Assembly (NCBI GenBank): GCA_964402035.1
Contig: CAYOAM010000002.1
Coordinates: 178,964 to 242,963 of the forward strand
Length of the DNA: 64,000 nucleotides
Source of the DNA: an uncultured Candidatus Saccharibacteria bacterium
GTDB taxonomy: Bacteria > Patescibacteriota > Minisyncoccia > Phycocordibacterales > UBA918
Direction: 5' to 3'
The notes under the pieces are model-generated. The model worked only from the letters and a program-made list of their open reading frames with translations. It did not search any database and was not told the DNA's origin. Of the stretch, positions 727 through 55,015 are shown in pieces (the first letter of the stretch is position 1; each line of letters opens with the position of its first letter). Position numbers and translations under genes: made by a program.

Positions 727-2640
727 TTACTCCCGTACCGGAGGTCGTTCATTTTTTGAAACAGCAAGTATTTTTTGAAGCTCCGCTAGCGTCATTTCTG
801 GCTGCTCTTTTTCTGTCAATCGAGACTCTTGCGGAGTGGTATTTTCAATCTTTTGCGGATTGGCATGCTGTTTTGATGGAGCGACGCGAACAGCTTCTGT
901 ACGTATAGATGACTGCTTAACACCCTCATCAAGTACTGAGCGCAGCGCACTCTTTAAATCGCGTGGTGTCGTAGTCGTTGACGTTGGTGTATTGGAAACC
1001 GCTTTATTTTGCGGTGCTACTTTTTGCTTTTCCTGTTTTGAGATTCGTTCCAAAATAGAGCGCAAATCATCCACATTCTTTGCATGCACTTCACGTGATG
1101 GAGACATCTTCTGACTCATAAGTTCTTTAAACGGTGGCCGCTTACTCTCTTGAGGACGCACGACCTGTTTTGGTCGCACCTCAACAGCTGCGGTAACGTT
1201 TTCTTTTGTATCTTCACGCTGCACCGGTTTCTGTACAACTGTTTGTACGGCAGTAGGAGCAACAACAACCTCAGCTTTAACTTCCTTTTTCGAGGCAGCG
1301 GGACGATCTTTTGATGTTGGTGCTGGTATTACTCGAGCCGGTTTTTTGATCGGTTCATGCCAGATACGTATCAATTCTTCAACTTCAGCACGAGGGCGCG
1401 AATACTTTGCCCGACTAGCCGCAATGACCTGATCCACGTGCGACATCTCTGCTTTTGGTATCGGTGGCAACGTGACCGCGGAAAAAGGCTTCGATCCAAT
1501 ACCATCAATCATGAGTGTGAGATAAATCTGTGCAAAACCTAAATTCACCAAATCGGTAGCGGTAAACTGTGGCGCAAACACAACCTCGAGTGTTTCAGCG
1601 TCAAAAGGACCCACACGAAAACTGATAGTTGTACCGACGTTACCAAAGACCGCATTACGCACCTCTTCTTCCATTTGTTCAACGTACTGATGTGCAATCG
1701 TCAGATTTAGTTTATATTTTCTTGCCTCAGAAAGAATATTTGCAAATGTCTCATTGGCAAATGATTGAAACTCATCTACATAGAGGTAAAAATTGGGCGC
1801 TTTTGCCATTGCTGCTGGCGGCATATCGGCGCGGGACATAGCCGCAAGATAGATGCGCGTAATAAACATCGAACCCAAGAGATTGGCATTGGTTTCCCCC
1901 ACCAAACCTTTTGAAAGATTGATGATAAGAATTTTTCGATCCTCCATCATCTGCCGTATATCAAAACTCGACTTCTCTTGACCAACAATGTTTCGTATCA
2001 GTGGATTTGCAGTAAACTGACCAACTTTGTTTTTGATCGCGTCGCCCGCCTCCTGCATATAACGCTCATTGTATTTTGCAAATTCGTCCACCCAAAAAGA
2101 TCGAACCGAAGGATCTTTCACATTTGCAACTACCTCTTTTCGATAATCAGGGTCAGAGAGCATGCGATTGACCCCGAGCAAGGTCGCTCCCGGATATTCA
2201 AGGAGTGCAAGCATCGTATTTGAGAGGATATACTCCATGCGTGCAGACCATGCGTCGACCCAAATCTTTTTGAACGTCGACATGAGTCCCGAGACCACTA
2301 AGTGGCGCTTGTCATAGCCCACATCCTCCATCACATTGAATGACATCGGATACCCCATATCGAATGGCGCAAAATACAATACATCTTTCATCCGAGACTC
2401 AGGAATGTATTCCAATATCTTTTCGGCCGTTGCGCCGTGTGGGTCCATAAAAGCCATCCCCTCTCCGTGTTTAATATCCTGTACCGCCATATTCTCGAGC
2501 ATGGTTGATTTGCCCATACCGGTCTTGCCAATAACATACATATGCTTGGTACGGTCTTTTGCCTTAATACCAAAAGCGACCTCACGCCCACGAGCATCAG
2601 TACGCGCAAAAAAAGTAATACGTTCTGGATCAAATTGCAT
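727..2640 (-). CDS. P-loop ATPase of the TraD/VirD4/TraG-like type IV coupling protein family (DUF87-like). It has no N-terminal TM segment and a long K/P/V/T-rich low-complexity C-terminal tail.
   Basis: 637-aa ORF. Walker A is VIGKTGMGKST. The TIAHQYVEQM segment and overall layout resemble the T4SS DNA-transfer ATPases commonly annotated in CPR genomes. The tail (roughly 727-1330) is compositionally biased. Confidence 0.5.
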   Translation of the reverse strand: MQFDPERITFFARTDARGREVAFGIKAKDRTKHMYVIGKTGMGKSTMLENMAVQDIKHGEGMAFMDPHGATAEKILEYIPESRMKDVLYFAPFDMGYPMSFNVMEDVGYDKRHLVVSGLMSTFKKIWVDAWSARMEYILSNTMLALLEYPGATLLGVNRMLSDPDYRKEVVANVKDPSVRSFWVDEFAKYNERYMQEAGDAIKNKVGQFTANPLIRNIVGQEKSSFDIRQMMEDRKILIINLSKGLVGETNANLLGSMFITRIYLAAMSRADMPPAAMAKAPNFYLYVDEFQSFANETFANILSEARKYKLNLTIAHQYVEQMEEEVRNAVFGNVGTTISFRVGPFDAETLEVVFAPQFTATDLVNLGFAQIYLTLMIDGIGSKPFSAVTLPPIPKAEMSHVDQVIAASRAKYSRPRAEVEELIRIWHEPIKKPARVIPAPTSKDRPAASKKEVKAEVVVAPTAVQTVVQKPVQREDTKENVTAAVEVRPKQVVRPQESKRPPFKELMSQKMSPSREVHAKNVDDLRSILERISKQEKQKVAPQNKAVSNTPTSTTTTPRDLKSALRSVLDEGVKQSSIRTEAVRVAPSKQHANPQKIENTTPQESRLTEKEQPEMTLAELQKILAVSKNERPPVRE

Positions 2641-2702
2641 AGCAGTTCAAGTATAACAAAAAACTCACAGCAAGGGGTTACCCCCATAGTGTAGAGCATG
2701 CT

Positions 2703-3614
2703 ATGATTCCCGGTACTATGTCACAAGGACAACAGGAAAAAACCCGTGCTGTAGAAAACTGGTGGAACACCAACCCATTTACCTACAACGGCTCGATAGG
2801 AGTTGGCAAAACGGTCGCCGTAGAAGACATGGATGTTAGTTTTTTTGATACCGCCGAAGCCCGCTACAAAAAGCACTCCGGCGGATCAACCGAAGACTCT
2901 GGAAAAGAGGTCTTTTCTAAGTTTATTGACTACCCTTCACTCAACGGGAAAAAAGTGCTTGATATAGCAACGGGCACAGGATTTTCAACGGTAACGTTTG
3001 CGCGTCACGGAGCTATCGTTACCGGTATTGATCTTACTGAGTACGCAACACGAGCAACACAACGAAATTTGGCGCTAAGAAATTTGCCAGGAACCGTTTT
3101 GCAGATGGATGCACAAAAACTTAATTTTCCTGACAATACGTTTGATTTTGTCTGTGCACATGGATGCCTCATGCATATGCCGAGCACCGCGAGTGCGGTA
3201 GCCGAAATCTATCGGGTACTAAAACCAGGTGGCACGATGTACGCATGGATGTATCACAAGGGTTGGTACTATTGGTTTAATATTCTTTTTGTACGCGGCA
3301 TACTCTGCGGAAAATTGTTTACCAACGGTTTTAGTACGCTCAAACTCACGAGTATGTATACCGATGGTGCATTTATGGGAGGCAACCCCCACACACGTCT
3401 CTATTCACGATCTGAGTTTAGAAACCTCTTTATGAAAGGCGGACTCACCAATGTCACTGTACATATCAATCACAATACGGCTGAGTGGGTATCGTGGCCG
3501 ATGGGAAAAATAGGATTTGGACATCGACTCATACCAAAAAGACTTCAGTATTTCTTGAGCGAACGTTGTGGGTTTGGTCTCGGTGCTTCTATTACTGCAA
3601 AAAAACCAGTGTGA
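2703..3614 (+). CDS. Class I SAM-dependent methyltransferase (Methyltransf_11-like)
   Basis: VLDIATGTGFSTVTFARHGAIVTGIDLTEYA is a glycine-rich SAM-binding motif I. Post I/II acidic residues are present. Confidence 0.7.
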   Translation: MIPGTMSQGQQEKTRAVENWWNTNPFTYNGSIGVGKTVAVEDMDVSFFDTAEARYKKHSGGSTEDSGKEVFSKFIDYPSLNGKKVLDIATGTGFSTVTFARHGAIVTGIDLTEYATRATQRNLALRNLPGTVLQMDAQKLNFPDNTFDFVCAHGCLMHMPSTASAVAEIYRVLKPGGTMYAWMYHKGWYYWFNILFVRGILCGKLFTNGFSTLKLTSMYTDGAFMGGNPHTRLYSRSEFRNLFMKGGLTNVTVHINHNTAEWVSWPMGKIGFGHRLIPKRLQYFLSERCGFGLGASITAKKPV

Positions 3615-3628
3615 ACTATGTAGTATCG

Positions 3629-4993
3629 CTACCAATCAATAGCGATTCGATCACCAAGTGACGGCGCTTCGGCCAGTGCATCAAGATAATCTCGTAATCG
3701 TTGCACCAAAAAGAGTGAAGCTTTTTCTTCTCCCATAGTAACGAATACTTTCTTTAATGATTTTGCTGTTCCTGCAACAAAATCAACAAGTGCTTCACGG
3801 TCGGCGTGACCTGAGTACCCTTGGATAGTTTCGATCTTTGCTCGTACCGCGACGACATGCCCATCAATAGTAACTTTTCGTGCACCATCCTGCAAAAGAC
3901 GTCCTATACTCCCCACTGTTTGGTACCCGACCAAAAGCACAGTGTTCTTTGGATCATCGAGATACATTTCTTCATGCTTTCGAATACGTCCCCCATGTGA
4001 CATCCCTGATCCTGCAATGATAATCTTTGGCCCTGGAACAGACTCAATTGCTTCAGATTCTTTCACCGATTCGGTAAAAGATAGCTTGGGAAAATCAAAA
4101 ATATCATCACCATTACTAATCTGTGTTTGTATCTCACGCTTAAGATACGTACTATGCTTGCGGTACAATTCCGTAACCTCGATAGCAAGCGGTGAATCAA
4201 GAAATGTAGGGACAGGCGCAATTTTTTTCGACTCCACAAAGTTATTAATTTCAAACAGCATGGCTTGTGTGCGCTCGAGAGAAAAAGCAGGAATAATCAG
4301 CGTGCCCTTTTTTCGTATCGTATCTTGGATGTATTGGAGCAATAGCGAGGATCGTTCTGCTACATCTTCATGCAGTCGATCACCATAGACACTCTCCATC
4401 ACCATAAACGTAGCATCGGTAGGATACTCTGGCTCATCAAGCAATGGCTGCGGCACATTGCCAATATCCCCCGAGAAAAAGAGCTTCTTGCCATCACGTA
4501 TAAACGTCACAAATGCAGAACCCAAGATATGTCCTGCATTAGAAAAGGAGACCGACATATCATCTTTAATCGCCATCGTCTCTCCGTATGTCATTACTTT
4601 CCATAGACGTAGTGCCGCATCAATATGCGCAGGCTCATAGAGTACCGGCGTCCCATACGTCCGTGCTTCGTATGACATGACATTGTATGCATCTCGCAGC
4701 ATCACTTCTGCGAGATCACGTGTTGGTGGTGTACTATAGATCACCCCTCCAAAACCATCCTTCACCAGTTTCGGTATGCGGCCAATATGGTCTGCATGTG
4801 CGTGTGTTATAAATAATATATTAACGTCCTTAGGATCATAGAGAAAATCAGCACTATTTTCATTTTGTGCAAAATGTGAACCCTGGACGAGTCCACAATC
4901 TACCAATACTTTTTGTGTTTCGGTTTCCAATAAAAAGTTGGCTCCAGTAACACTTCCTGTACCTCCATAAAAACCTAGATGTGCTGTCCGCAT
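3629..4993 (-). CDS. MBL-fold metallo-hydrolase of the beta-CASP RNA-metabolising family (RNase J/CPSF-like)
   Basis: HAHADHIG metallo-beta-lactamase motif. The 454-aa length and beta-CASP-like C-terminal half fit the family. Confidence 0.7.
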   Translation of the reverse strand: MRTAHLGFYGGTGSVTGANFLLETETQKVLVDCGLVQGSHFAQNENSADFLYDPKDVNILFITHAHADHIGRIPKLVKDGFGGVIYSTPPTRDLAEVMLRDAYNVMSYEARTYGTPVLYEPAHIDAALRLWKVMTYGETMAIKDDMSVSFSNAGHILGSAFVTFIRDGKKLFFSGDIGNVPQPLLDEPEYPTDATFMVMESVYGDRLHEDVAERSSLLLQYIQDTIRKKGTLIIPAFSLERTQAMLFEINNFVESKKIAPVPTFLDSPLAIEVTELYRKHSTYLKREIQTQISNGDDIFDFPKLSFTESVKESEAIESVPGPKIIIAGSGMSHGGRIRKHEEMYLDDPKNTVLLVGYQTVGSIGRLLQDGARKVTIDGHVVAVRAKIETIQGYSGHADREALVDFVAGTAKSLKKVFVTMGEEKASLFLVQRLRDYLDALAEAPSLGDRIAIDW

Positions 4994-4995
4994 AA

Positions 4996-5448
4996 TTAAT
5001 ATTGTTTCTTATAGAGCGTTGCGATCATGTAGCCGACCGTTCCCCCCATCAAATCAAAGACAAGATCAGAAAGTGTATCGAGTTTATAATTGACCGCATC
5101 GGCAAGTACGAACCACCATTCAAAAATCTCCCAAGCAATCCCAACAGCAAACACTACCACGAGACACATCCATATCGTTTCTACCCGAATAGGCATCACG
5201 CGCCGAAAGAGAGCAGTCTGTGTACCGAGACCGATAATAACTCCACCCAAAAAATGCATCGGTACATCAAACCACGCATAGACCCAATAGAGAGAATACA
5301 TGAGCGCAAGTTGATGCAAGAGCGCAAGTGTCGTGAGTGCTATAAAAAAAAGAATGAGTGGACTATCAAATCGCATCAGACTAGTATAGCAAAAGATACA
5401 AAAAATCCGGCCTACGCCGGATACTTTGTACGGGTCACATAGAAGCAT
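4996..5448 (-). CDS. Small polytopic membrane protein, possibly VanZ-like
   Basis: 150 aa with 4 predicted hydrophobic helices. The FDVPMHFLGG segment resembles the VanZ D-x3-H-F motif, but the family assignment is weak. Confidence 0.4.
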   Translation of the reverse strand: MLLCDPYKVSGVGRIFCIFCYTSLMRFDSPLILFFIALTTLALLHQLALMYSLYWVYAWFDVPMHFLGGVIIGLGTQTALFRRVMPIRVETIWMCLVVVFAVGIAWEIFEWWFVLADAVNYKLDTLSDLVFDLMGGTVGYMIATLYKKQY

Positions 5449-5774
5449 GTCGCCCTGAAAGTTTCAGGTGGGTGCCCTATCCAATCTGCGGCTGAAATCT
5501 CTTGCGAGTCCTCATTGGCGATTGCGAGATTAGGCTCCCTAACATTACTGTTAAGAGAAACATGCTATAAATGCAACCCTACCGATGATTATAGCAGTTT
5601 TTTCTTTCATGCAAAGTCATTCACAGCCACAGCAGAAAACAAGCACGCAACAAAACGCATTAGATGCTAGGAGATACGAGGCGCGGACGAGGAACGACGC
5701 GAGCCGTATTCAAAATACGGTGAGCTAGTCCCGGAGTCCGCAACAAAGTAGCTTCTGCAGATAATGCGTTTTGT

Positions 5775-6401
5775 CTATTCGAGGATGCCGTTCAGATCGA
5801 CATCGTATAGTATCCGTTCCTGTGCCGTCTTATAGTTAATCAATTCCTTAGCATCAAACCATACAGCGATCTCACGCTCTGCTTCGTCAGGTGACTCTGA
5901 CTGATGAACGAGATTGCGCACTGCGCGATTCTGAAATGTAGAGTGTCCATAGGAATCAACGGTGAGATCTCCACGAATCGTACCAACATCGGACGTCGCA
6001 GGCTCAGTTGAACCAACAATCTTTGATACAATCGCCACAGCTTGATTGCCTTCAACCACCATAGCAAGCACAGGGCCAGCGGTCATAAACGCAACGATAG
6101 TGTCTATAATTCCTCGGCCATATGCCATAGCATCTTTCTTTATAGGGAGACCTTGCGCCGTCAAATCTTCGATAATACGATTGCCTTTCTTAAGAAACCA
6201 CGCATCGTCTTTGTTGTAGTGTACAAGACATTGCTCGCGATTGGGTACCAAAAACTTAAAACCGACAAATTTGAGACCGGTTCGCTCAAAACGGGCAATA
6301 ATCTCGCCAATTAGCCCACGCTGTACGCCGTCAGGTTTGATGATGACCAAAGTGCGCTCTTGGTGCATACCGGGCTTTCGCATTGAAATTTCATTACTCA
6401 T
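5775..6401 (-). CDS. ndk: Nucleoside diphosphate kinase
   Basis: RTLVIIKPDGVQRGLIGEIIARFERTGLKFVGFKF is the canonical NDK N-terminal region. The active-site His region is present. Confidence 0.85.
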   Translation of the reverse strand: MSNEISMRKPGMHQERTLVIIKPDGVQRGLIGEIIARFERTGLKFVGFKFLVPNREQCLVHYNKDDAWFLKKGNRIIEDLTAQGLPIKKDAMAYGRGIIDTIVAFMTAGPVLAMVVEGNQAVAIVSKIVGSTEPATSDVGTIRGDLTVDSYGHSTFQNRAVRNLVHQSESPDEAEREIAVWFDAKELINYKTAQERILYDVDLNGILE

Positions 6402-6467
6402 ACCTATATTATAGCATATTTAAGGCTTTATTCAAGCCATCTTTGTTCACTATTGATATTGCAATAC

Positions 6468-6543
6468 AAAAACAGCACCCTGCACATTTTTAAACCCAGA
6501 CCTACCCCCGACCTTTTTAAAAATGTGCAGGGTGCTGTTTTTG
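6468..6543. terminator. Long perfect hairpin (about 24-bp stem) with A/T runs on both sides; bidirectional terminator-like element downstream of map
   Basis: aaaaacagcaccctgcacattttta ... taaaaatgtgcagggtgctgttttt, with a 24-nt loop aacccagacctacccccgaccttt. Confidence 0.6.
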
Positions 6544-6548
6544 GTCAC

Positions 6549-7325
6549 CTAAGCCTGCTCGGTCACAATCTCGGGGCCTGCTTCGGTGATCAGCACAGTG
6601 TGTTCAAAATGAGCACTACGAGAACCATCCTTGGTACGCACGGTATAACCATCCTCTTCATCAAACACCACCTGCTTTTTGCCCGCATTGAGCATCGGCT
6701 CAATTGCAAATGCCATCCCCACTTCAATTTTTTCCCCTGTCCCAGGGCGTCCAAAATTGGGTACAAATGGCGCTTCATGGACTGCGTAGCCCACGCCGTG
6801 CCCGCAGAGCTCCTCCACAATACCAAAACCAAATGGCTTTACGTAGGATTCGATCGCATGACCAATATCGCCCACCGTATTACCTGCACGCGCCGCAGCA
6901 ATGCCACGCGCGCGCGCTTCTTTTGTAACGTCAATAAGTTTTTGTGAAAGTGCATCAATCTTCCCTACCGCTACGGTCCGAGCTGAATCAACGATCATAT
7001 CGTCAACAGCGATCGAGACATCAATACCGATGATGTCTCCTTCTTTGAGGATGATTGGGCTTTCGTTTGGTATGCCATGCACTATGACGTCGTTGACCGA
7101 TGTGCAGATCGCTGCAGGATAGGGGCGTTCGGCAAACTCCGGATGATACCCAAGAAGAATCGGCTCTGCGCCATACTGTTCGATCAGGCGCATCGCTTCA
7201 TCATCAAGATCTTGGGTCGAAACGCCGGGTGCCACCATACGTTCGAGATCAGTAAGGACGCGCGCAAGAACCTTCCCCGCTTTGCGCATTTTTTCAAAAT
7301 CATCTTTCGTTTTTTTCTGAATCAT
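6549..7325 (-). CDS. map: Methionine aminopeptidase type I
   Basis: 258 aa. The metal-binding D/D/H/E/E pattern is present (e.g. GHGVGYAVHEAP). Position after adk matches the conserved secY-adk-map order. Confidence 0.85.
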   Translation of the reverse strand: MIQKKTKDDFEKMRKAGKVLARVLTDLERMVAPGVSTQDLDDEAMRLIEQYGAEPILLGYHPEFAERPYPAAICTSVNDVIVHGIPNESPIILKEGDIIGIDVSIAVDDMIVDSARTVAVGKIDALSQKLIDVTKEARARGIAAARAGNTVGDIGHAIESYVKPFGFGIVEELCGHGVGYAVHEAPFVPNFGRPGTGEKIEVGMAFAIEPMLNAGKKQVVFDEEDGYTVRTKDGSRSAHFEHTVLITEAGPEIVTEQA

Positions 7326-47840: not shown

Positions 47841-48105
47841 TCTTGGCTCTCACATTACTGTGAGGATTGGACTATATCTTCTTCCAAACAATTTGGAAGG
47901 TTGACGTTTAGTCTCTACGGGTGCTTATGGGCTTCCCTCGGTATTACCCTTTAACCAAAAAATAAATGGCTAAATTGGGTTCTTCCGATATAGTCAACTT
48001 TACTACAGAACATTGCTGTTCTGTGCCGCCGTACTGATGTCTTTTCGAATATAAGTGGTCACATATATTCTCCCCGGGTTTAGATTGGTTCAGGCAACGA
48101 ATTAC
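47841..48105 (-). mobile_element. 23S intron at the GAACG|GTGAGACAG junction (about 265 bp, no ORF)
   Basis: Exons are colinear with E. coli 23S near 2590-2600. The intron ends in G. Its 3' domain is homologous to the 16S introns. Confidence 0.65.
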
Positions 48106-50130: not shown

Positions 50131-51821
50131 AATCCTCAACGAAGTCCACGAATCCGCAGTTTCGGTACTATGCTTGAGCCCCGATCATCTTCGGCGCAGA
50201 AACTCTCGACGAGTGAGCTGTTACGCTATCTTTAAAGGATGGCTGCTTCTAAGCCAACCTCCTCGCTGTCAATGAATTTCCACTTCCTCAAGACGCACTG
50301 AGCATAGATTTAGGGACCTTAACTGGCGATCTGGGCTGTTCCCCTTTTGACTGATGGAGCTTATCCCCCATAGTCTAACTGCCGCGCTATAACTCTCGGT
50401 ATTCGGAGTTTGATAGGTCCCACGAGATTTCTCCCTGTTGAGACCTTCCAGTGCTCTACCCCCAAGAGGACCACGCGACGCCAACCCAAAAGCTGTTTCG
50501 GAGAGAACCAGCTATTACGGAATTCGATTAGCTTTTCACTCCATACCACAAATCATCCGATGGTTTTGCACGGCCAACCGGTTCGGGCCTCCCCACATCT
50601 TTCGATGTGGTTCACCCTGTTCATGGCAAGCTCATCCCGCTTCGGGTCGTACTCTATCCCTATATTCGCGCTATTCACACTCGCTTTCGCTCTGCCTCCG
50701 GGGGTTCACCCCTTAGACGAAGGAATACAGTACACTCGCCGGCTCATTCTTCAATAGGCACGCGGTCACCAGGCTTGCGCCCAGCTCCCACTCTTTGTAA
50801 GCATACGGTTTCAGATCTATTTCACTGTCCTCACCGGACTGTTTTTCACCTTTCCCTCACGGTACTCGTTCACTATCGGTCTCTTGGAATATTTAGCCTT
50901 AGGAGTTAGTGCTCCCAGATTCATTCGAGCTATTCATGTCTCGAACTACTCAGGAACGGCAACAAGAAAGTGGTAGATAATTTCGCATACGGGACTATTA
51001 CCCACTGGGGTCACTCTTTCCAGAGTGTTCCGCTATCATCACCATTTATTTCTTTCCTCAACTAAATGACGTCGCCGCCCTACAACCCCGACCATGTAAA
51101 CACGATCGGTTTGGGCTTCTCCCGTTTCGCTCGCCGCTACTAAGGGAATTGCAAGTGTCTTCTTCCTGACCATAATGGCGTCGCGGTATTGCTACCGCGA
51201 CATTCGATCAGAAAGAAAACACCCTTTATTGCTTTCTTTTCCTCCGGGTACTGAGATGTTTCACTTCCCCGGGTACGCGACCAACAACAAGTGTTGGACC
51301 TCTATCGTAGATAGAGAGGTTTCCCCATTCGGACATTCTCGGGTCGCAGATTGCTTGGCATCTAACCGAGACTTATCGCAGCCATGCTACGTCCTTCATC
51401 GCTTCACAAGAGCCTAGGCATCCACCGTACGCTCTTCATTCCTGTAAGGAAGACCACACACCGTGTTGCAACATAGAATTTGTGACAATATGAAATTTGT
51501 TTTTCAAAATTTTGTTTCCTCAATGTTCACTCGTTCGGAAAAGAAAATGCAAGCACTTTCTTTTCCTCACTCGCTCCATTGAAAAGGAATACTACACATC
51601 TCCTGTCTTACAGATGGTTTTTCTTCCATTACCTAAATGCTAAACACCGCTGTTTAGTTTTCAATTATGTTGTTTCTCGCATGCAGCACATAGTTTTGGG
51701 AAAAGACCCGCAAAAACAAACATGCATTACATGCGATCCGTATGTGCAACAAACACACATACGATTTGCTCGTATACACCTACATGATATGAAATTGTCA
51801 ACGAACGGGTGTTTCCCTGAG

Positions 51822-51846
51822 GACCAAAAAAGCCGCTTGAAGCGGC
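51822..51846 (-). terminator. Rho-independent terminator downstream of the hypothetical operon and upstream of the 23S
   Basis: Minus strand gccgcttcaagcggcttttttgg. Confidence 0.6.
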
Positions 51847-52069
51847 ACAGAAATCCCAAACGAGATTCTATTCCGCTTAGGTCTTTAATTTGATACTCAT
51901 AAACACGTAGCCGCCAGTATATATGAGGGTGTGCAAACCGTCAACTATTTCTGCCCTCGTACCGCTTGATGATTTCTATAGGGCAAAAACTGACCTAAAT
52001 ACGAAAGGAAATGGCTGCTCTCCCAAGCGGGAGAGCAGCCATTTCAAAGCCTAAAAACATCCTTTTGCA

Positions 52070-52708
52070 CTAAAACACCGCCGTCTGAGCTCGCAAGCTG
52101 TCCTTCACCCCGATACGATCAATCAAGATCTGGTGTGGGTAGTCAAAGACATCGCGCGTCAGCTTGTCATACATACCGAGTCGATAGCGAAAATCATCGG
52201 TCGTAAATGTGGCAAAACGAATACCAATACCAAGCTCTGCTTCAAGCGTACGCACTGCCGATTCTATCTTTCCTTGCTGGAGTTTGCTCGAAGCAATAAT
52301 GAGATCCAAGCGTCCATCAAAGGAACGGGTAAATATCCCCGACGTGACCAGAAGATCAATCTTCCCCCCCTTACGCATGTGGTGCAGCACCGTCTTGCTA
52401 TCAAGTGGAGCTGTTTCAAACAAGAAGGTCTGGAGTGGAATCAATTTTTCAAATTTAAGATTCAGTGCGTATCCCTGCACTCGGCGACGATTACCACTGT
52501 CAGTCGTAATCACCGTTTGCTTTTTTCGAATAATTTCAGCACGCTCAAGTATCGAAAGTTCGGTACGTGCCGTATGCCGCACCAGTCGCGCTCGATGCAA
52601 AATATCGTCCATACCAAAGACCATGGAGGGGTTAAAGAGAAAAAGTCGGAGCAATTTTATCGTCGCTGCATTCCCAAAAAGGATTGAGAGCCAGTCAGTA
52701 TTTTTCAT
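52070..52708 (-). CDS. Hypothetical protein, last gene of a three-gene operon of unknown function
   Basis: 212 aa. Helix-rich N-terminus, possibly wHTH-like. The GKIDLLV segment is only superficially NTase-like (single Asp). Confidence 0.5.
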   Translation of the reverse strand: MKNTDWLSILFGNAATIKLLRLFLFNPSMVFGMDDILHRARLVRHTARTELSILERAEIIRKKQTVITTDSGNRRRVQGYALNLKFEKLIPLQTFLFETAPLDSKTVLHHMRKGGKIDLLVTSGIFTRSFDGRLDLIIASSKLQQGKIESAVRTLEAELGIGIRFATFTTDDFRYRLGMYDKLTRDVFDYPHQILIDRIGVKDSLRAQTAVF

Positions 52709-52810
52709 AACGCCAAGGGATTATAGCATAGGGGGTTTTAGATGGGCAGAGAGGGGGAAATAGAGCTTCAGACACAAACCATTTTCAAAGTATTAGAAAA
52801 TGTTCAATTC

Positions 52811-53599
52811 TTATTTCCGATGGTACGCATCCAAAGATCTCCTATACCCAGCAATTTGATGAGAGCGCTTTTCACATACTGGCGCCATTTTTTGCAACAC
52901 ACCCACTACGCTGCTGACTTGTGGCAGTGATTTGAGTTGATTATATGCAGGTAAAAGACTTTTCCCTACAGCATCTACCTGCACCCGAAGACGAGCTACG
53001 CTGTCAGTATCTTCCTTCAAGCTTCGTCCCGTACGCACGGGTGGAGCCTCTAAGATGCGCACAAATGTTTCCAGCGCTCGTGTCGCAGTTTGCGCATCGT
53101 TTCGCCCCCAAGCTTCATTGAGAATTCGAGAGATGCTCAGTAATTGAGTGAATGCATCTTCAGAAAAAATCGATGGCAATCTCCTGTCTTCTCGATCTTT
53201 TATAACAGAGGCGAGCCGTGAAATATGGAAAGCTATATCATCTATGTATCGACTCGATTCTTTAAAGATATCTCTCATTTCTAGAGATTGCGGCTGCGAC
53301 GCAGTCTCCATTTTGCTGCCCACCGTGGAAGGATTTGAAATACGCTTTTTCGCACGCAATTCTTCAATTTTTTCCCTAAGGCCAAATTGCTCGGTGTATT
53401 CAAGATCTATAACTCCCTTTCGCACCTGAGAAATTATCTCTACAAGATCATCAGCAGAATAGACCTTGCCATCAATTTTCACTCGCGCAATGGAGTCTAT
53501 AACTTCAATTAACTCATTGAAATTTTGCGTAGCAGCCACCGCCTCCTTAAGAGCTTCAGCGCTTTCAATACGTTTAGAATCCTGTTCTTTTTCAAACAT
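52811..53599 (-). CDS. Hypothetical acidic helical protein, paralog of the upstream gene in its N-terminal ~60 aa
   Basis: NFNELIEVIDSIARVKIDGKVYSADDLVEIISQVRKGVIDLEYTEQFGLREKI aligns with NFEDLYRVLERVCPIRGTQAMYFAEQLINIIDRVRRGELTIDYVTRTHGLREKV of 53603-54784. Confidence 0.55.
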   Translation of the reverse strand: MFEKEQDSKRIESAEALKEAVAATQNFNELIEVIDSIARVKIDGKVYSADDLVEIISQVRKGVIDLEYTEQFGLREKIEELRAKKRISNPSTVGSKMETASQPQSLEMRDIFKESSRYIDDIAFHISRLASVIKDREDRRLPSIFSEDAFTQLLSISRILNEAWGRNDAQTATRALETFVRILEAPPVRTGRSLKEDTDSVARLRVQVDAVGKSLLPAYNQLKSLPQVSSVVGVLQKMAPVCEKRSHQIAGYRRSLDAYHRK

Positions 53600-53602
53600 A
53601 TA

Positions 53603-54784
53603 TTAATTTTTTGGAATCTTTCTTTGAAGATGGCGCACGTGCTGTACTGACCCTCTATGTATTATAGTAGCATTTTCTGCAAACGTTTTACCATTCTCCA
53701 TCACTACTTTTTCAGTGGAAATAGTCTTAAAATTGTTTTGATTCTGAAAGACAAGCATGTGCTCATCACCCCAGACAAGTCTCCCTTCCACAATTACATC
53801 AGCACCATCTTCTCGCACAGTAACATTTTCAGATCCAATGTTTGGGTAACCAACCCACACTCTGTTACCGAGGAAATTTTTATCCTGGGGAAACAATTGC
53901 ATGAAACATCTCCATTCAAAGTCTTTTATTTCTATATTTTCCTCCTTTTGCAAGCGTCCTTCGATCTCTTTCGCAACTAATTTTATAATTCCATGATGGA
54001 GCATTTCTGGCAACTGGGACAGCTCAGCGTTACCATTTCGAAACTGCTCAATTTGGTATATTAACTCTTTTCCAGATATAGTCTCTCCTGAGTTTTCAAA
54101 AGAGAAAGTCCGTAACAGATTGTAGAGTGACTCAAATGAACTCGCATTTTCAATATCTTTAATTTGTTGAACTTTGATATCTATCTCTTGGAATCTACGC
54201 AGTACTTCTGGGTCAGCGATGTTTAGATATAGATGCGGGACAGATTGCAGATTAAGTCTATATTCAGTGGTAAATCTCTGATCATATTCTGATTTTGCTC
54301 GCGCGTAGAATGCCTCCTCCTCATCGGTGAGAGGAGATAAGGGTATATTTTGTTGTTCTACCACTTCACTTTCAAATAACCCCTTCTTTATTTCCAAAGT
54401 GACGGAAGCTGAGTCAGACTCTGGATCTGGTGGTTGCACTGAATCTACATCGACAGCAACTGCACTCTCTTCATTACCATTTTTTGGAATTTCTAAAGCG
54501 ACCATAGCTTCTCGTGGCGGTGGAGGTTCAGGAGTTACTTTGTGTAATAAACTTGCCACTTTCTCACGCAGACCATGTGTTCGTGTTACATAATCTATGG
54601 TTAACTCCCCTCTTCTTACTCGGTCAATAATATTAATTAATTGCTCCGCAAAGTACATTGCTTGGGTGCCTCGAATAGGACAGACTCTTTCAAGTACTCT
54701 ATACAAATCCTCAAAATTACCCGACCTTTCAATTAGTTTTTCAGGTGACTCAGCCACTTCGTTCTTGCTGTGTTCAAAGTTCAT
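53603..54784 (-). CDS. Hypothetical acidic protein, first gene of the operon. It shares an N-terminal domain with 52811-53599.
   Basis: 393 aa, no TM. The shared ~60-aa N-terminal module ends in GLREK[VI]. Confidence 0.55.
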   Translation of the reverse strand: MNFEHSKNEVAESPEKLIERSGNFEDLYRVLERVCPIRGTQAMYFAEQLINIIDRVRRGELTIDYVTRTHGLREKVASLLHKVTPEPPPPREAMVALEIPKNGNEESAVAVDVDSVQPPDPESDSASVTLEIKKGLFESEVVEQQNIPLSPLTDEEEAFYARAKSEYDQRFTTEYRLNLQSVPHLYLNIADPEVLRRFQEIDIKVQQIKDIENASSFESLYNLLRTFSFENSGETISGKELIYQIEQFRNGNAELSQLPEMLHHGIIKLVAKEIEGRLQKEENIEIKDFEWRCFMQLFPQDKNFLGNRVWVGYPNIGSENVTVREDGADVIVEGRLVWGDEHMLVFQNQNNFKTISTEKVVMENGKTFAENATIIHRGSVQHVRHLQRKIPKN

Positions 54785-54924
54785 TCTCTAATTATACATC
54801 ACACAGATTTATAAAGTCACCTTCGCTTCCCCCCGTAAAATTGTTTCCCAAACAATTTTACCTAAGCATAATTCTTGTTACACAGAATTCTGCTGAGTGC
54901 TGTCGGGCCGGTCTCAACACGTCA

Positions 54925-54958
54925 TAAGAAAAACAGTCCCCCGGACTGTTTTTCTTTG
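54925..54958. terminator. Palindromic terminator downstream of rplL
   Basis: gaaaaacagtcccccggactgtttttc. Confidence 0.65.
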
Positions 54959-55015
54959 CGTGTTTCCGACTCAGAAGCTTTGAAGGCAACGAGTGACGGA
55001 ACTACTCTGCGAGAT

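Follow-up and report, generated by a model that had tools for sequence, protein, structure and literature searches.

Minimal nucleotidyltransferases (MNTs) carry the signature hG[GS]...D-x-[DE] together with a third acidic residue. A nucleotidyltransferase, M05A, is paired with a HEPN protein in PDC-M05, a candidate defence system that resembles toxin-antitoxin (TA) systems (PMC12988326). Here, we analysed a homologue of M05A and its two upstream neighbours in a 64,000-nucleotide stretch of DNA from an uncultured Candidatus Saccharibacteria bacterium (contig CAYOAM010000002.1, positions 178,964 to 242,963; the whole stretch is referred to below as the window, and coordinates are those of the window). 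An initial annotation had described three minus-strand open reading frames (ORFs) between the rplL terminator and the terminator preceding the 23S rRNA gene, at positions that proved exact, and had read them as a single operon, tentatively an effector, immunity or defense-associated module. The three genes, referred to here as A, B and C, are:

53603 to 54784, minus strand: gene A, ORF of 393 aa
52811 to 53599, minus strand: gene B, ORF of 262 aa
52070 to 52708, minus strand: gene C, ORF of 212 aa, a winged helix-turn-helix (wHTH) plus nucleotidyltransferase-like protein homologous to PDC-M05A

On balance, we favor the view that this interval holds two separate things, the conserved gene C and an accessory A-B pair lying next to it, and the distribution of the genes carries this conclusion. 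Homologues of C form at least 1700 clusters in a database of 5.8 billion sequences; the best 120 of these clusters are 58-99% identical to C and of the same length, and the few named homologues derive from Patescibacteria or Kaiserbacteria. A C homologue was present in eight other genomes (loci L002, L003, L005, L006, L007-9, L010, L014 and L023), and in seven of the eight, all but L014, the order is rplJ, rplL, either no gene or one unrelated gene, and then C, with the 23S and 5S rRNA genes following C in L002, L003, L005, L007, L009 and L010. What adjoins C in these eight genomes is rplL, a slot gene of unrelated type, the 23S rRNA gene or a mechanosensitive (MS)-channel gene. In L007-9, L010 and L023 the slot between rplL and C is empty, a noncoding gap of about 320-640 nt, and in other genomes one gene occupies it, whose product is a membrane protein of 224 aa, a Big_5 protein of 370 aa, or a protein of 183 or 120 aa, in each case unlike A and B. 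The genomes with the closest C proteins (80% and 76% identity) lack both A and B, and apart from the genome studied here the two were found only in a 99% identical strain (L022). Conversely, A-like genes occur without B or C in at least five other contexts, including a cluster of type IV secretion system (T4SS)-pilin and tRNA genes (L001), a position beside an NYN gene (L011), L026 and a prophage-like region (L027), and no neighbour of these A-like genes resembles B. The initial annotation had named absence of co-occurrence in related genomes as grounds for giving up the single three-gene system, and a survey of gene neighbourhoods found just such an absence on both sides, with C lacking A and B in eight other genomes and A-like genes lacking B and C elsewhere.

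Transcription signals around C provide further evidence that it stands apart. The relevant features are:

52720 to 52730, minus strand: extended -10 promoter of C, TATGCTATAAT, 11 nt 5' of the ATG
52008 to 52045, minus strand: terminator after C, with a 17-bp stem

The loci of the eight other genomes have an extended -10 element that is nearly the same, TATGCTATAAT (TATAGT variant in L007 and L009), 11-24 nt 5' of the C start codon, often with a terminator ahead of it. The element has no obvious -35 box, and the 11-24 nt separating it from the ATG contain no Shine-Dalgarno sequence. Because this promoter is its own and is conserved upstream of the gene, C is taken to be its own transcription unit, and we conclude that C is a conserved single-copy gene of a Patescibacteria lineage (Kaiserbacteria-like) with its own promoter and its own terminator. 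Two observations weigh against a clean separation of C from A and B. No terminator lies between B and C, and read-through from A-B into C is therefore possible; and 2 of approximately 14 loci encoding the module shared by A and B (described below) lie near C, which is more than chance would place beside a single-copy gene. The second of these loci, directly 5' of the 23S rRNA gene in the metagenome-assembled genome ELA559 (L014, positions 2031-6558), contains a C homologue, an MS-channel-like gene, a gene for an 879-aa module protein and a gene for a DUF5663-like 102-aa protein, the module gene being placed between the C homologue and the rRNA gene. This pattern could reflect either an insertion hot spot adjacent to the rRNA genes or a weak functional link between A/B and C, and both fit it equally well.

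We next consider the domain organization of C, for which the following were assigned:

52463 to 52708, minus strand: winged-helix domain of C, aa 1-82
52139 to 52444, minus strand: alpha/beta nucleotidyltransferase-like domain of C, aa 89-190, from the PDC-M05A matches and the homologue alignment

An AlphaFold2 (AF2) model of C built from 40 homologues reached a predicted local distance difference test (pLDDT) score of 75.6, and placed after the alpha/beta domain (residues 89-187 in the model) a low-confidence but highly conserved tail, YRxGMYDKLxRDVFDYPH. The N-terminal region has the winged helix-turn-helix fold of MarR/ArsR-type proteins, bearing out the wHTH-like N-terminus previously described for this protein. 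In contrast with MarR/ArsR/SarZ-type regulators, C lacks the MarR dimerisation helices and has an alpha/beta domain in their place, and its identity to these regulators is only 8-16%. No significant match to C, A or B was found in Pfam or NCBIfam, in agreement with the earlier statement that the three proteins have no recognizable domains, but that statement did not hold against PADLOC, in which C matched two PDC-M05A hidden Markov models (HMMs; PDLC04368, E = 4.7e-9; PDLC04369, E = 0.0025). These HMMs matched all 40 C homologues tested (best E = 1.6e-13) and span both the wHTH and the C-terminal domain of proteins with lengths similar to that of C (approximately 201-212 aa), making C an M05A-type wHTH-nucleotidyltransferase protein by this measure.

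Residues invariant in the homologue alignment include G124, R133, D135, E156, E158 and R164. In the motif register that we infer, the segment SG-IFxR-xFDx-RLD-hhh of C retains the Gly and the second Asp (D135) of the MNT signature. It differs from minimal nucleotidyltransferases in that the first Asp of DxD appears to be replaced by an invariant Arg (R133-L-D135), with the nearly invariant D131 nearby, and R164 occupies the usual place of the third acidic residue, adjoined by the nearly invariant E162 (E162-I-R164). The nucleotidyltransferase assignment rests on the HMM matches to a candidate family and on this reading of the motif; two structure searches with C returned lists dominated by wHTH matches, with no nucleotidyltransferase among the matches listed. 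A C profile had no significant match among PDB sequences. Considering these data together, C pairs a winged helix of the MarR/ArsR type with a nucleotidyltransferase-like domain. It most likely regulates by binding DNA, with a C-terminal domain for nucleotide binding or transfer, and would then be a conserved wHTH-nucleotidyltransferase-like regulator of an ordinary kind, though a poorly understood one.

The match to PDC-M05A, half of a nucleotidyltransferase plus HEPN candidate system, is also a reason to suppose that A, B and C form one defence or TA-like system, with C as a PDC-M05-type nucleotidyltransferase antitoxin or regulator and A and B as paralogous effector and immunity proteins. 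The tandem paralogy of A and B with divergent tails, the absence of a terminator between B and C, and the recurrence of a module gene near the C homologue in L014 would all fit such an arrangement. However, C occurs without A or B in the eight other genomes, no HEPN partner (M05B) lies next to C in any of the nine genomes, and rather than being patchily distributed in defence islands C is conserved in the manner of a core gene, being 58-80% identical across at least 120 clusters in a fixed syntenic position. A-like genes are likewise found elsewhere without B or C. Furthermore, with a limit as loose as E <= 1, models of HEPN, PDC-M05B, toxins or immunity proteins matched neither A nor B, a result that for HEPN covers both PADLOC and Pfam, and the sole Rx5H string in B comes so near the end of the protein, 3 residues from the C-terminus, that a HEPN helix would not fit there. 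We therefore regard the single-system interpretation as very improbable, and as largely refuted by the lack of co-occurrence. The proposed role in effector, immunity or defense functions fared no better, as toxin, immunity, HEPN and other defence partners went undetected in Pfam, NCBIfam and PADLOC scans. A similar comparison applies to polymorphic toxin cassettes, with which the locus shares an N-terminal domain common to A and B; no toxin, secretion-associated domain or immunity family was found in Pfam, NCBIfam, PADLOC or PHROG searches, and the other loci show no conserved downstream partner.

With C set apart as a conserved gene, we turned to A and B. The module that they share was confirmed as real, with a BLASTP alignment between their N-termini at E = 2e-9 and 32% identity over 74 aa. 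As an independent measure, an HMM was constructed from 211 module copies that did not include A, B or any A-like protein, and this HMM scored the first copy in A at 91 bits, the copy in B at 66.5 bits and an internal copy in A at 33.9 bits. These scores place the similarity of A and B far beyond chance. The module had been described as an N-terminal segment of about 60 aa; it is indeed common to the N-termini of A and B, but extends to 70-75 aa and is present in a second, internal copy in A. The features of the two proteins are:

54536 to 54751, minus strand: module copy 1 of A, aa 12-83, pLDDT 80-90
54350 to 54535, minus strand: linker of A, aa 84-145, a Pro-rich motif followed by an acidic, predicted disordered segment, pLDDT below 50
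53957 to 54169, minus strand: module copy 2 of A, aa 206-276, degenerate and without the TRT..GLR motif
53669 to 53944, minus strand: C-terminal domain of A, aa 281-372, the HEW..F..DYLG..YP.IG motif region followed by a five-strand beta domain
53333 to 53554, minus strand: module of B, aa 16-89
52814 to 53329, minus strand: orphan tail of B, aa 91-262

Read from the N-terminus, A thus has module 1, the Pro-rich motif EAAVALE(L/I)P, a disordered acidic linker and a helical region, followed by the degenerate module 2, the beta domain and a basic tail. The two copies of the module in A are related by BLASTP (E = 0.003) and adopt the same helix-hairpin-helix-helix topology in the AF2 model. Acidic, helical C-termini had been proposed for both proteins. 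The acidic character holds for A (net charge -19) but not for B (net charge +2), and the tail of A is not simply helical, given the disordered linker, helical region, second module and five-strand beta domain in its AF2 model. The beta domain is weakly suggestive of an Sm/Hfq-like fold, as the scores were marginal, the model derived from a 3-sequence alignment, and the domain has neither the N-terminal Sm helix nor a match to the Sm1/Sm2 sequence motifs.

Homologues of the full-length proteins are few. In a word-indexed search of the 5.8 billion sequences, A retrieved itself and one homologue, P0122 (34% identity), while for B no homologue beyond itself was found; the known copies of B are the identical sequence and the 99% identical strain variant (L022). 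No significant match was obtained for A or B in PHROGs or PADLOC, and an A profile, B and a profile of the A C-terminal domain had no significant match among PDB sequences. Weak library matches of A and B to CdiI_N, DHquinase_I and Hfq_rel all fell below cut-offs and were discarded. The tail of B has no similarity to any of 150 module-family proteins, to Pfam, to PADLOC or to PDB, and a HEPN reading of this tail was rejected, with the Rx5H string at residues 253-259 only 3 residues from the C-terminus and no HMM support. The lack of any homologue of the tail, and the origin of the only other copy in a 99% identical strain, raise the question of whether B, or at least its 172-aa tail, is a non-functional, decaying duplicate of the A N-terminus fused to noncoding sequence. 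Several properties of the gene argue otherwise: its module is well preserved at 66.5 bits, its ORF remains open for 262 codons in a context of approximately 44% GC, its start is tightly coupled to the stop of A, and the two strains differ at only 2 residues of B, both in the module region, with a frameshift in neither. We thus view decay of B as extremely unlikely.

The B start codon lies 3 nt after the A stop codon (TAA-TAT-ATG), and the two genes are probably translationally coupled. Among the 39 long ORFs of the window, A ranks lowest both in GC content (0.395; mean 0.469, standard deviation 0.029) and in GC at third codon positions (0.326). A and B most likely represent a translationally coupled, strain-specific bicistron that was inserted into the variable slot between the rplL terminator and the C promoter. 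We looked for insertion scars in the form of direct or inverted repeats flanking A-B and found none that were convincing.

To define the wider distribution of the module, an exhaustive HMMER search of representatives at 50% clustering was conducted with a profile built from A, P0122 and the B N-terminus. The search yielded 797 module-bearing representatives with a cut-off of E <= 1e-3; tightening it to E <= 1e-10 left 212. The module consensus, ELISEAKSFEELYEVLDKIGGIQGSQEVYSAEELIDIIERVRKGELDINYITRTYGLRDKVEELLAK, has a net charge of about -7 and a predicted topology of helix, beta-hairpin, helix and a TRTxGLRxKV loop-helix. The loop that leads into the last helix has an invariant R58, and conservation reaches at least 90% at T52 and G56. 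Named carriers include Saccharibacteria, Vogelbacteria, Peribacteria, the "Patescibacteria group" and one bin labelled Gammaproteobacteria, a range that is a lower bound from a narrow-alignment contig scan of 8 loci. The module was described as novel, and this assessment stood: no Pfam-A, NCBIfam, PHROG or PADLOC family was common to 147 module proteins, the consensus, A and B, and the consensus had no significant match in the PDB. Profile matches in the PDB to a GH20 beta-N-acetylhexosaminidase (per-domain E = 0.049) and to engineered OspA repeats were set aside as short motif coincidences.

About a dozen full-length A-like proteins were found in the module family, and the remainder have only the module in common. 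In the layout common to the A-like proteins, module 1 is followed by the motif PPxEAAVALELP, a disordered acidic linker, a PIxPLTxEE motif with a helical region, a degenerate module 2, an HEW..F..DYLGxR..YPxIG region with the beta domain, and a basic tail. The PPxEAAVALE(L/I)P motif directly follows module 1, at residues approximately 88-100 of A (window positions approximately 54485-54523) and in the A-like proteins P0124-P0134, of which P0124 has it twice; the motif could serve as a peptide ligand or as a site of processing. Across the family, the module makes up stand-alone proteins of 81-111 aa, is repeated in tandem in 2-5 copies, or appears once or more anywhere along proteins whose length reaches 2142 aa. 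Pfam partners among the 147 module proteins comprise RamC_N (4), HopA1 (2), DnaJ (3), PP2C (1) and transglutaminase (1); one protein, P0137, combines 5 modules with a J domain, and an additional fusion of PP2C with the module was found in L018. Hydrophobic segments were present in 6 of 150 module-family proteins, none of them N-terminal, and no signal peptide or recognisable export signal was detected in the family. The genomic neighbourhoods of module genes are heterogeneous, ranging from the T4SS-pilin/tRNA cluster and the NYN gene to the prophage-like region with integrase and KilA-N genes and others, and no partner gene recurs among the module loci examined. The protein encoded at positions 7001-8575 of L027, P0133, contains two modules and an A-type C-terminal domain, and its surroundings are prophage-like or integrative, with Phage_integrase and KilA-N genes, a gene for a PG_binding_1 protein and many small unannotated ORFs. 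From these data we conclude that A and B are accessory, strain-specific members of an uncatalogued domain family of the candidate phyla radiation (CPR).

PP2C proteins are phosphatases acting on phosphoserine and phosphothreonine (pSer/pThr), and in proteins of the DnaJ, PP2C and lyase classes to which the module is fused, the target is usually selected by the non-catalytic part. HopA1-like proteins and the N-terminal domains of class III LanKC enzymes are pSer/pThr lyases (PMC9486802, PMC10604976). The module is thus a repeated, acidic, non-catalytic domain found on partners that act on other proteins or peptides, for which a docking or adaptor domain is the simplest explanation. The protein-directed nature of these partners, together with the near absence of signal peptides and membrane segments, would place such an adaptor in the cytoplasm. 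It is most likely that the module mediates cytoplasmic protein-protein docking and brings its fusion partner to a common target. In this respect it resembles the client-targeting domains of J-proteins and the docking domains of PP2C phosphatases and of OspF/SpvC/HopA1/LanKC lyases, being itself fused to DnaJ, PP2C and RamC_N/HopA1. A and B differ from these in having neither a catalytic nor a J domain. With two modules and an Sm-like beta domain in A, one module and an orphan tail in B, and no enzyme domain in either, they could act as scaffolds or as competitors for the docking site. A recognisable partner domain is present in only about 12 of 147 module proteins and the connection to phospho-Ser/Thr comes from few cases, which tempers this interpretation; the adaptor function and any link to phospho-signalling are proposals.

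Effector-Associated Domains (EADs) and Death-like adaptor domains of conflict systems, reportedly described by Kaur, Burroughs, Iyer and Aravind in 2020, offer another parallel, in that they too comprise a domain of about 70 residues common to neighbouring genes and fused at either terminus to many effector-like enzymes. In contrast with these, the module also occurs in tandem arrays of 2-5 copies and as stand-alone proteins, contains a beta-hairpin rather than being all-helical, and is not accompanied by a STAND/NTPase partner, either in this interval or beside those module genes that were examined. The comparison is one of architecture only.

The same fusion partners permit other readings of the module. 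Seven of the approximately 12 partner domains remove phosphate from pSer/pThr (RamC_N 4, HopA1 2, PP2C 1), with the L018 PP2C fusion in addition, and the Thr and Arg of the conserved TRTxGLR loop (R58 invariant, T52 and G56 at least 90% conserved) could form a phospho-acceptor or phosphate-binding site, upon which fused PP2C or pSer/pThr lyases would act in cis or in trans. In a Ser/Thr phospho-relay of this kind, A and B would serve as substrates or as decoys. However, no kinase domain was found, fused or adjacent, in the module proteins and loci examined, the DnaJ and transglutaminase fusions do not fit, the second module copy of A lacks the TRT..GLR motif, and the argument is purely inferential. 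We consider such a phospho-switch quite unlikely.

A and B might also be effectors that an episymbiotic CPR bacterium directs at its host, with the module shared by a diversifying repertoire and serving in secretion, in translocation or in docking to host targets. The fusions to domains of effector type (HopA1 family, PP2C and transglutaminase), the size of module proteins (up to 2142 aa) and the great diversity of their tails would be in keeping with this, as would the strain-specific occurrence and low GC, the presence of one relative in a prophage-like region, and the position of the A homologue P0122, whose gene adjoins six T4SS-pilin genes. On the other hand, the family is devoid of signal peptides and other recognisable export signals, the other loci examined show no conserved linkage to a secretion system, and many members consist of nothing but module arrays or are fused to DnaJ, as would suit a role inside the cell. 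Moreover, HopA1-like proteins are not only secreted effectors but also lyases in the biosynthesis of bacterial peptides that are made by ribosomes and modified after translation (RiPPs). A role as host-directed effectors is therefore rather doubtful, and cytoplasmic docking continues to be the reading that we prefer.

Upstream of A, on the same strand, Pfam matches identify genes for DUF1360 and CDP-alcohol phosphatidyltransferase proteins, followed by rplJ and rplL. The features flanking the three genes on either side are:

54926 to 54956, minus strand: intrinsic terminator of rplL, a perfect hairpin of 14 bp flanked by a preceding A-run and a following U-run
54835 to 54861, minus strand: second perfect hairpin, with 12-bp arms and a GGG loop
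54791 to 54820, minus strand: promoter-like GTGACT-18-TATAAT before A, with 10 of 12 consensus matches
51916 to 51944, minus strand: promoter-like TTGACG-17-TATACT ahead of the 23S rRNA gene
51448 to 47546: 23S rRNA gene with a group I intron, 3' of C, followed by the 5S rRNA gene

The rplL terminator hairpin (free energy -27.1 kcal/mol, z = -7.3) forms the 5' edge of the slot and is kept in L010 and L023, and the second hairpin shows compensatory changes in L023. The roughly 120 nt of noncoding sequence after the rplL terminator (54862-54978) is 77% conserved in L010 and L023, both of which lack A and B; neither this stretch nor the hairpin at 54835-54861 matched Rfam. The promoter-like site before A is a consensus match only, in a region where the number of such sites is not above shuffle expectation. 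Its TATAAT ends 6 nt 5' of the A start codon, and the A mRNA may be leaderless. Taken with the short distance from the C promoter to its ATG, this spacing suggests that the mRNAs of A and C are leaderless or near-leaderless. On the other side of C, the region 5' of the 23S rRNA gene (51624-51926) is conserved in L002, L010 and L023. A match to the Rfam family CssrB at window positions 51919-52040 on the plus strand scored 36.7 bits against a gathering score of 76 and is sub-threshold; it overlaps the long terminator hairpin after C and is probably driven by that hairpin. Neither the interval nor the empty slot in L023 had an Rfam match above threshold, and the weaker ones were driven by hairpins.

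The empty gap of about 600 nt between rplL and C in L023 (150-770) and L010 (6360-7000) contains a promoter-like TGCTATCAT, several GC-rich hairpins and a terminator. Judging from these signals, it could encode a small RNA, though Rfam returned only sub-threshold matches there. Elsewhere in the window, minus-strand rRNA features at 31846-34526, 32465-33085, 33768-34048 and 47848-48091 correspond to the 16S rRNA gene, introns and an endonuclease ORF. The archaeal small-subunit model scores best on the 16S rRNA gene, which is interrupted by a group I intron and an ORF for a LAGLIDADG_2 homing endonuclease (Pfam E = 6.8e-29). The 16S and 23S rRNA genes are unlinked, approximately 13 kb apart, and this arrangement of rRNA genes with introns is typical of CPR genomes.

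Going further, the module might be a new docking or switch domain of CPR/Patescibacteria that organises a network of Ser/Thr-phosphate removal and chaperone activity, or else the marker of a set of diversifying effectors directed against the bacterial host of these episymbionts, with A and B as enzyme-less regulators or decoys and the rRNA-flanking slot beside C as a preferred landing site. We put this forward as speculation that is unlikely to hold. If the network were real, the module would recruit pSer/pThr lyases, PP2C phosphatases and J-domains to one target.

The three-gene system as such does not matter, as it is not one system, and nothing at the locus points to a new kind of mechanism. 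For the annotation of CPR genomes, the results for C carry a caution, given that the PADLOC PDC-M05A HMMs pick up a syntenic, core-like CPR gene with no HEPN partner, and counts of defence systems could mislabel the C family. Locked between rplJL and the 23S rRNA gene, this family is a sensible candidate regulator in organisms whose transcriptional control is hardly understood. As for A and B, the domain family to which they belong now has a consensus, boundaries and a list of architectures, with about 800 representatives at 50% clustering, mostly from Patescibacteria, and its fusions point to protein-directed enzymes, providing a handle on part of the "dark" proteome of the CPR.

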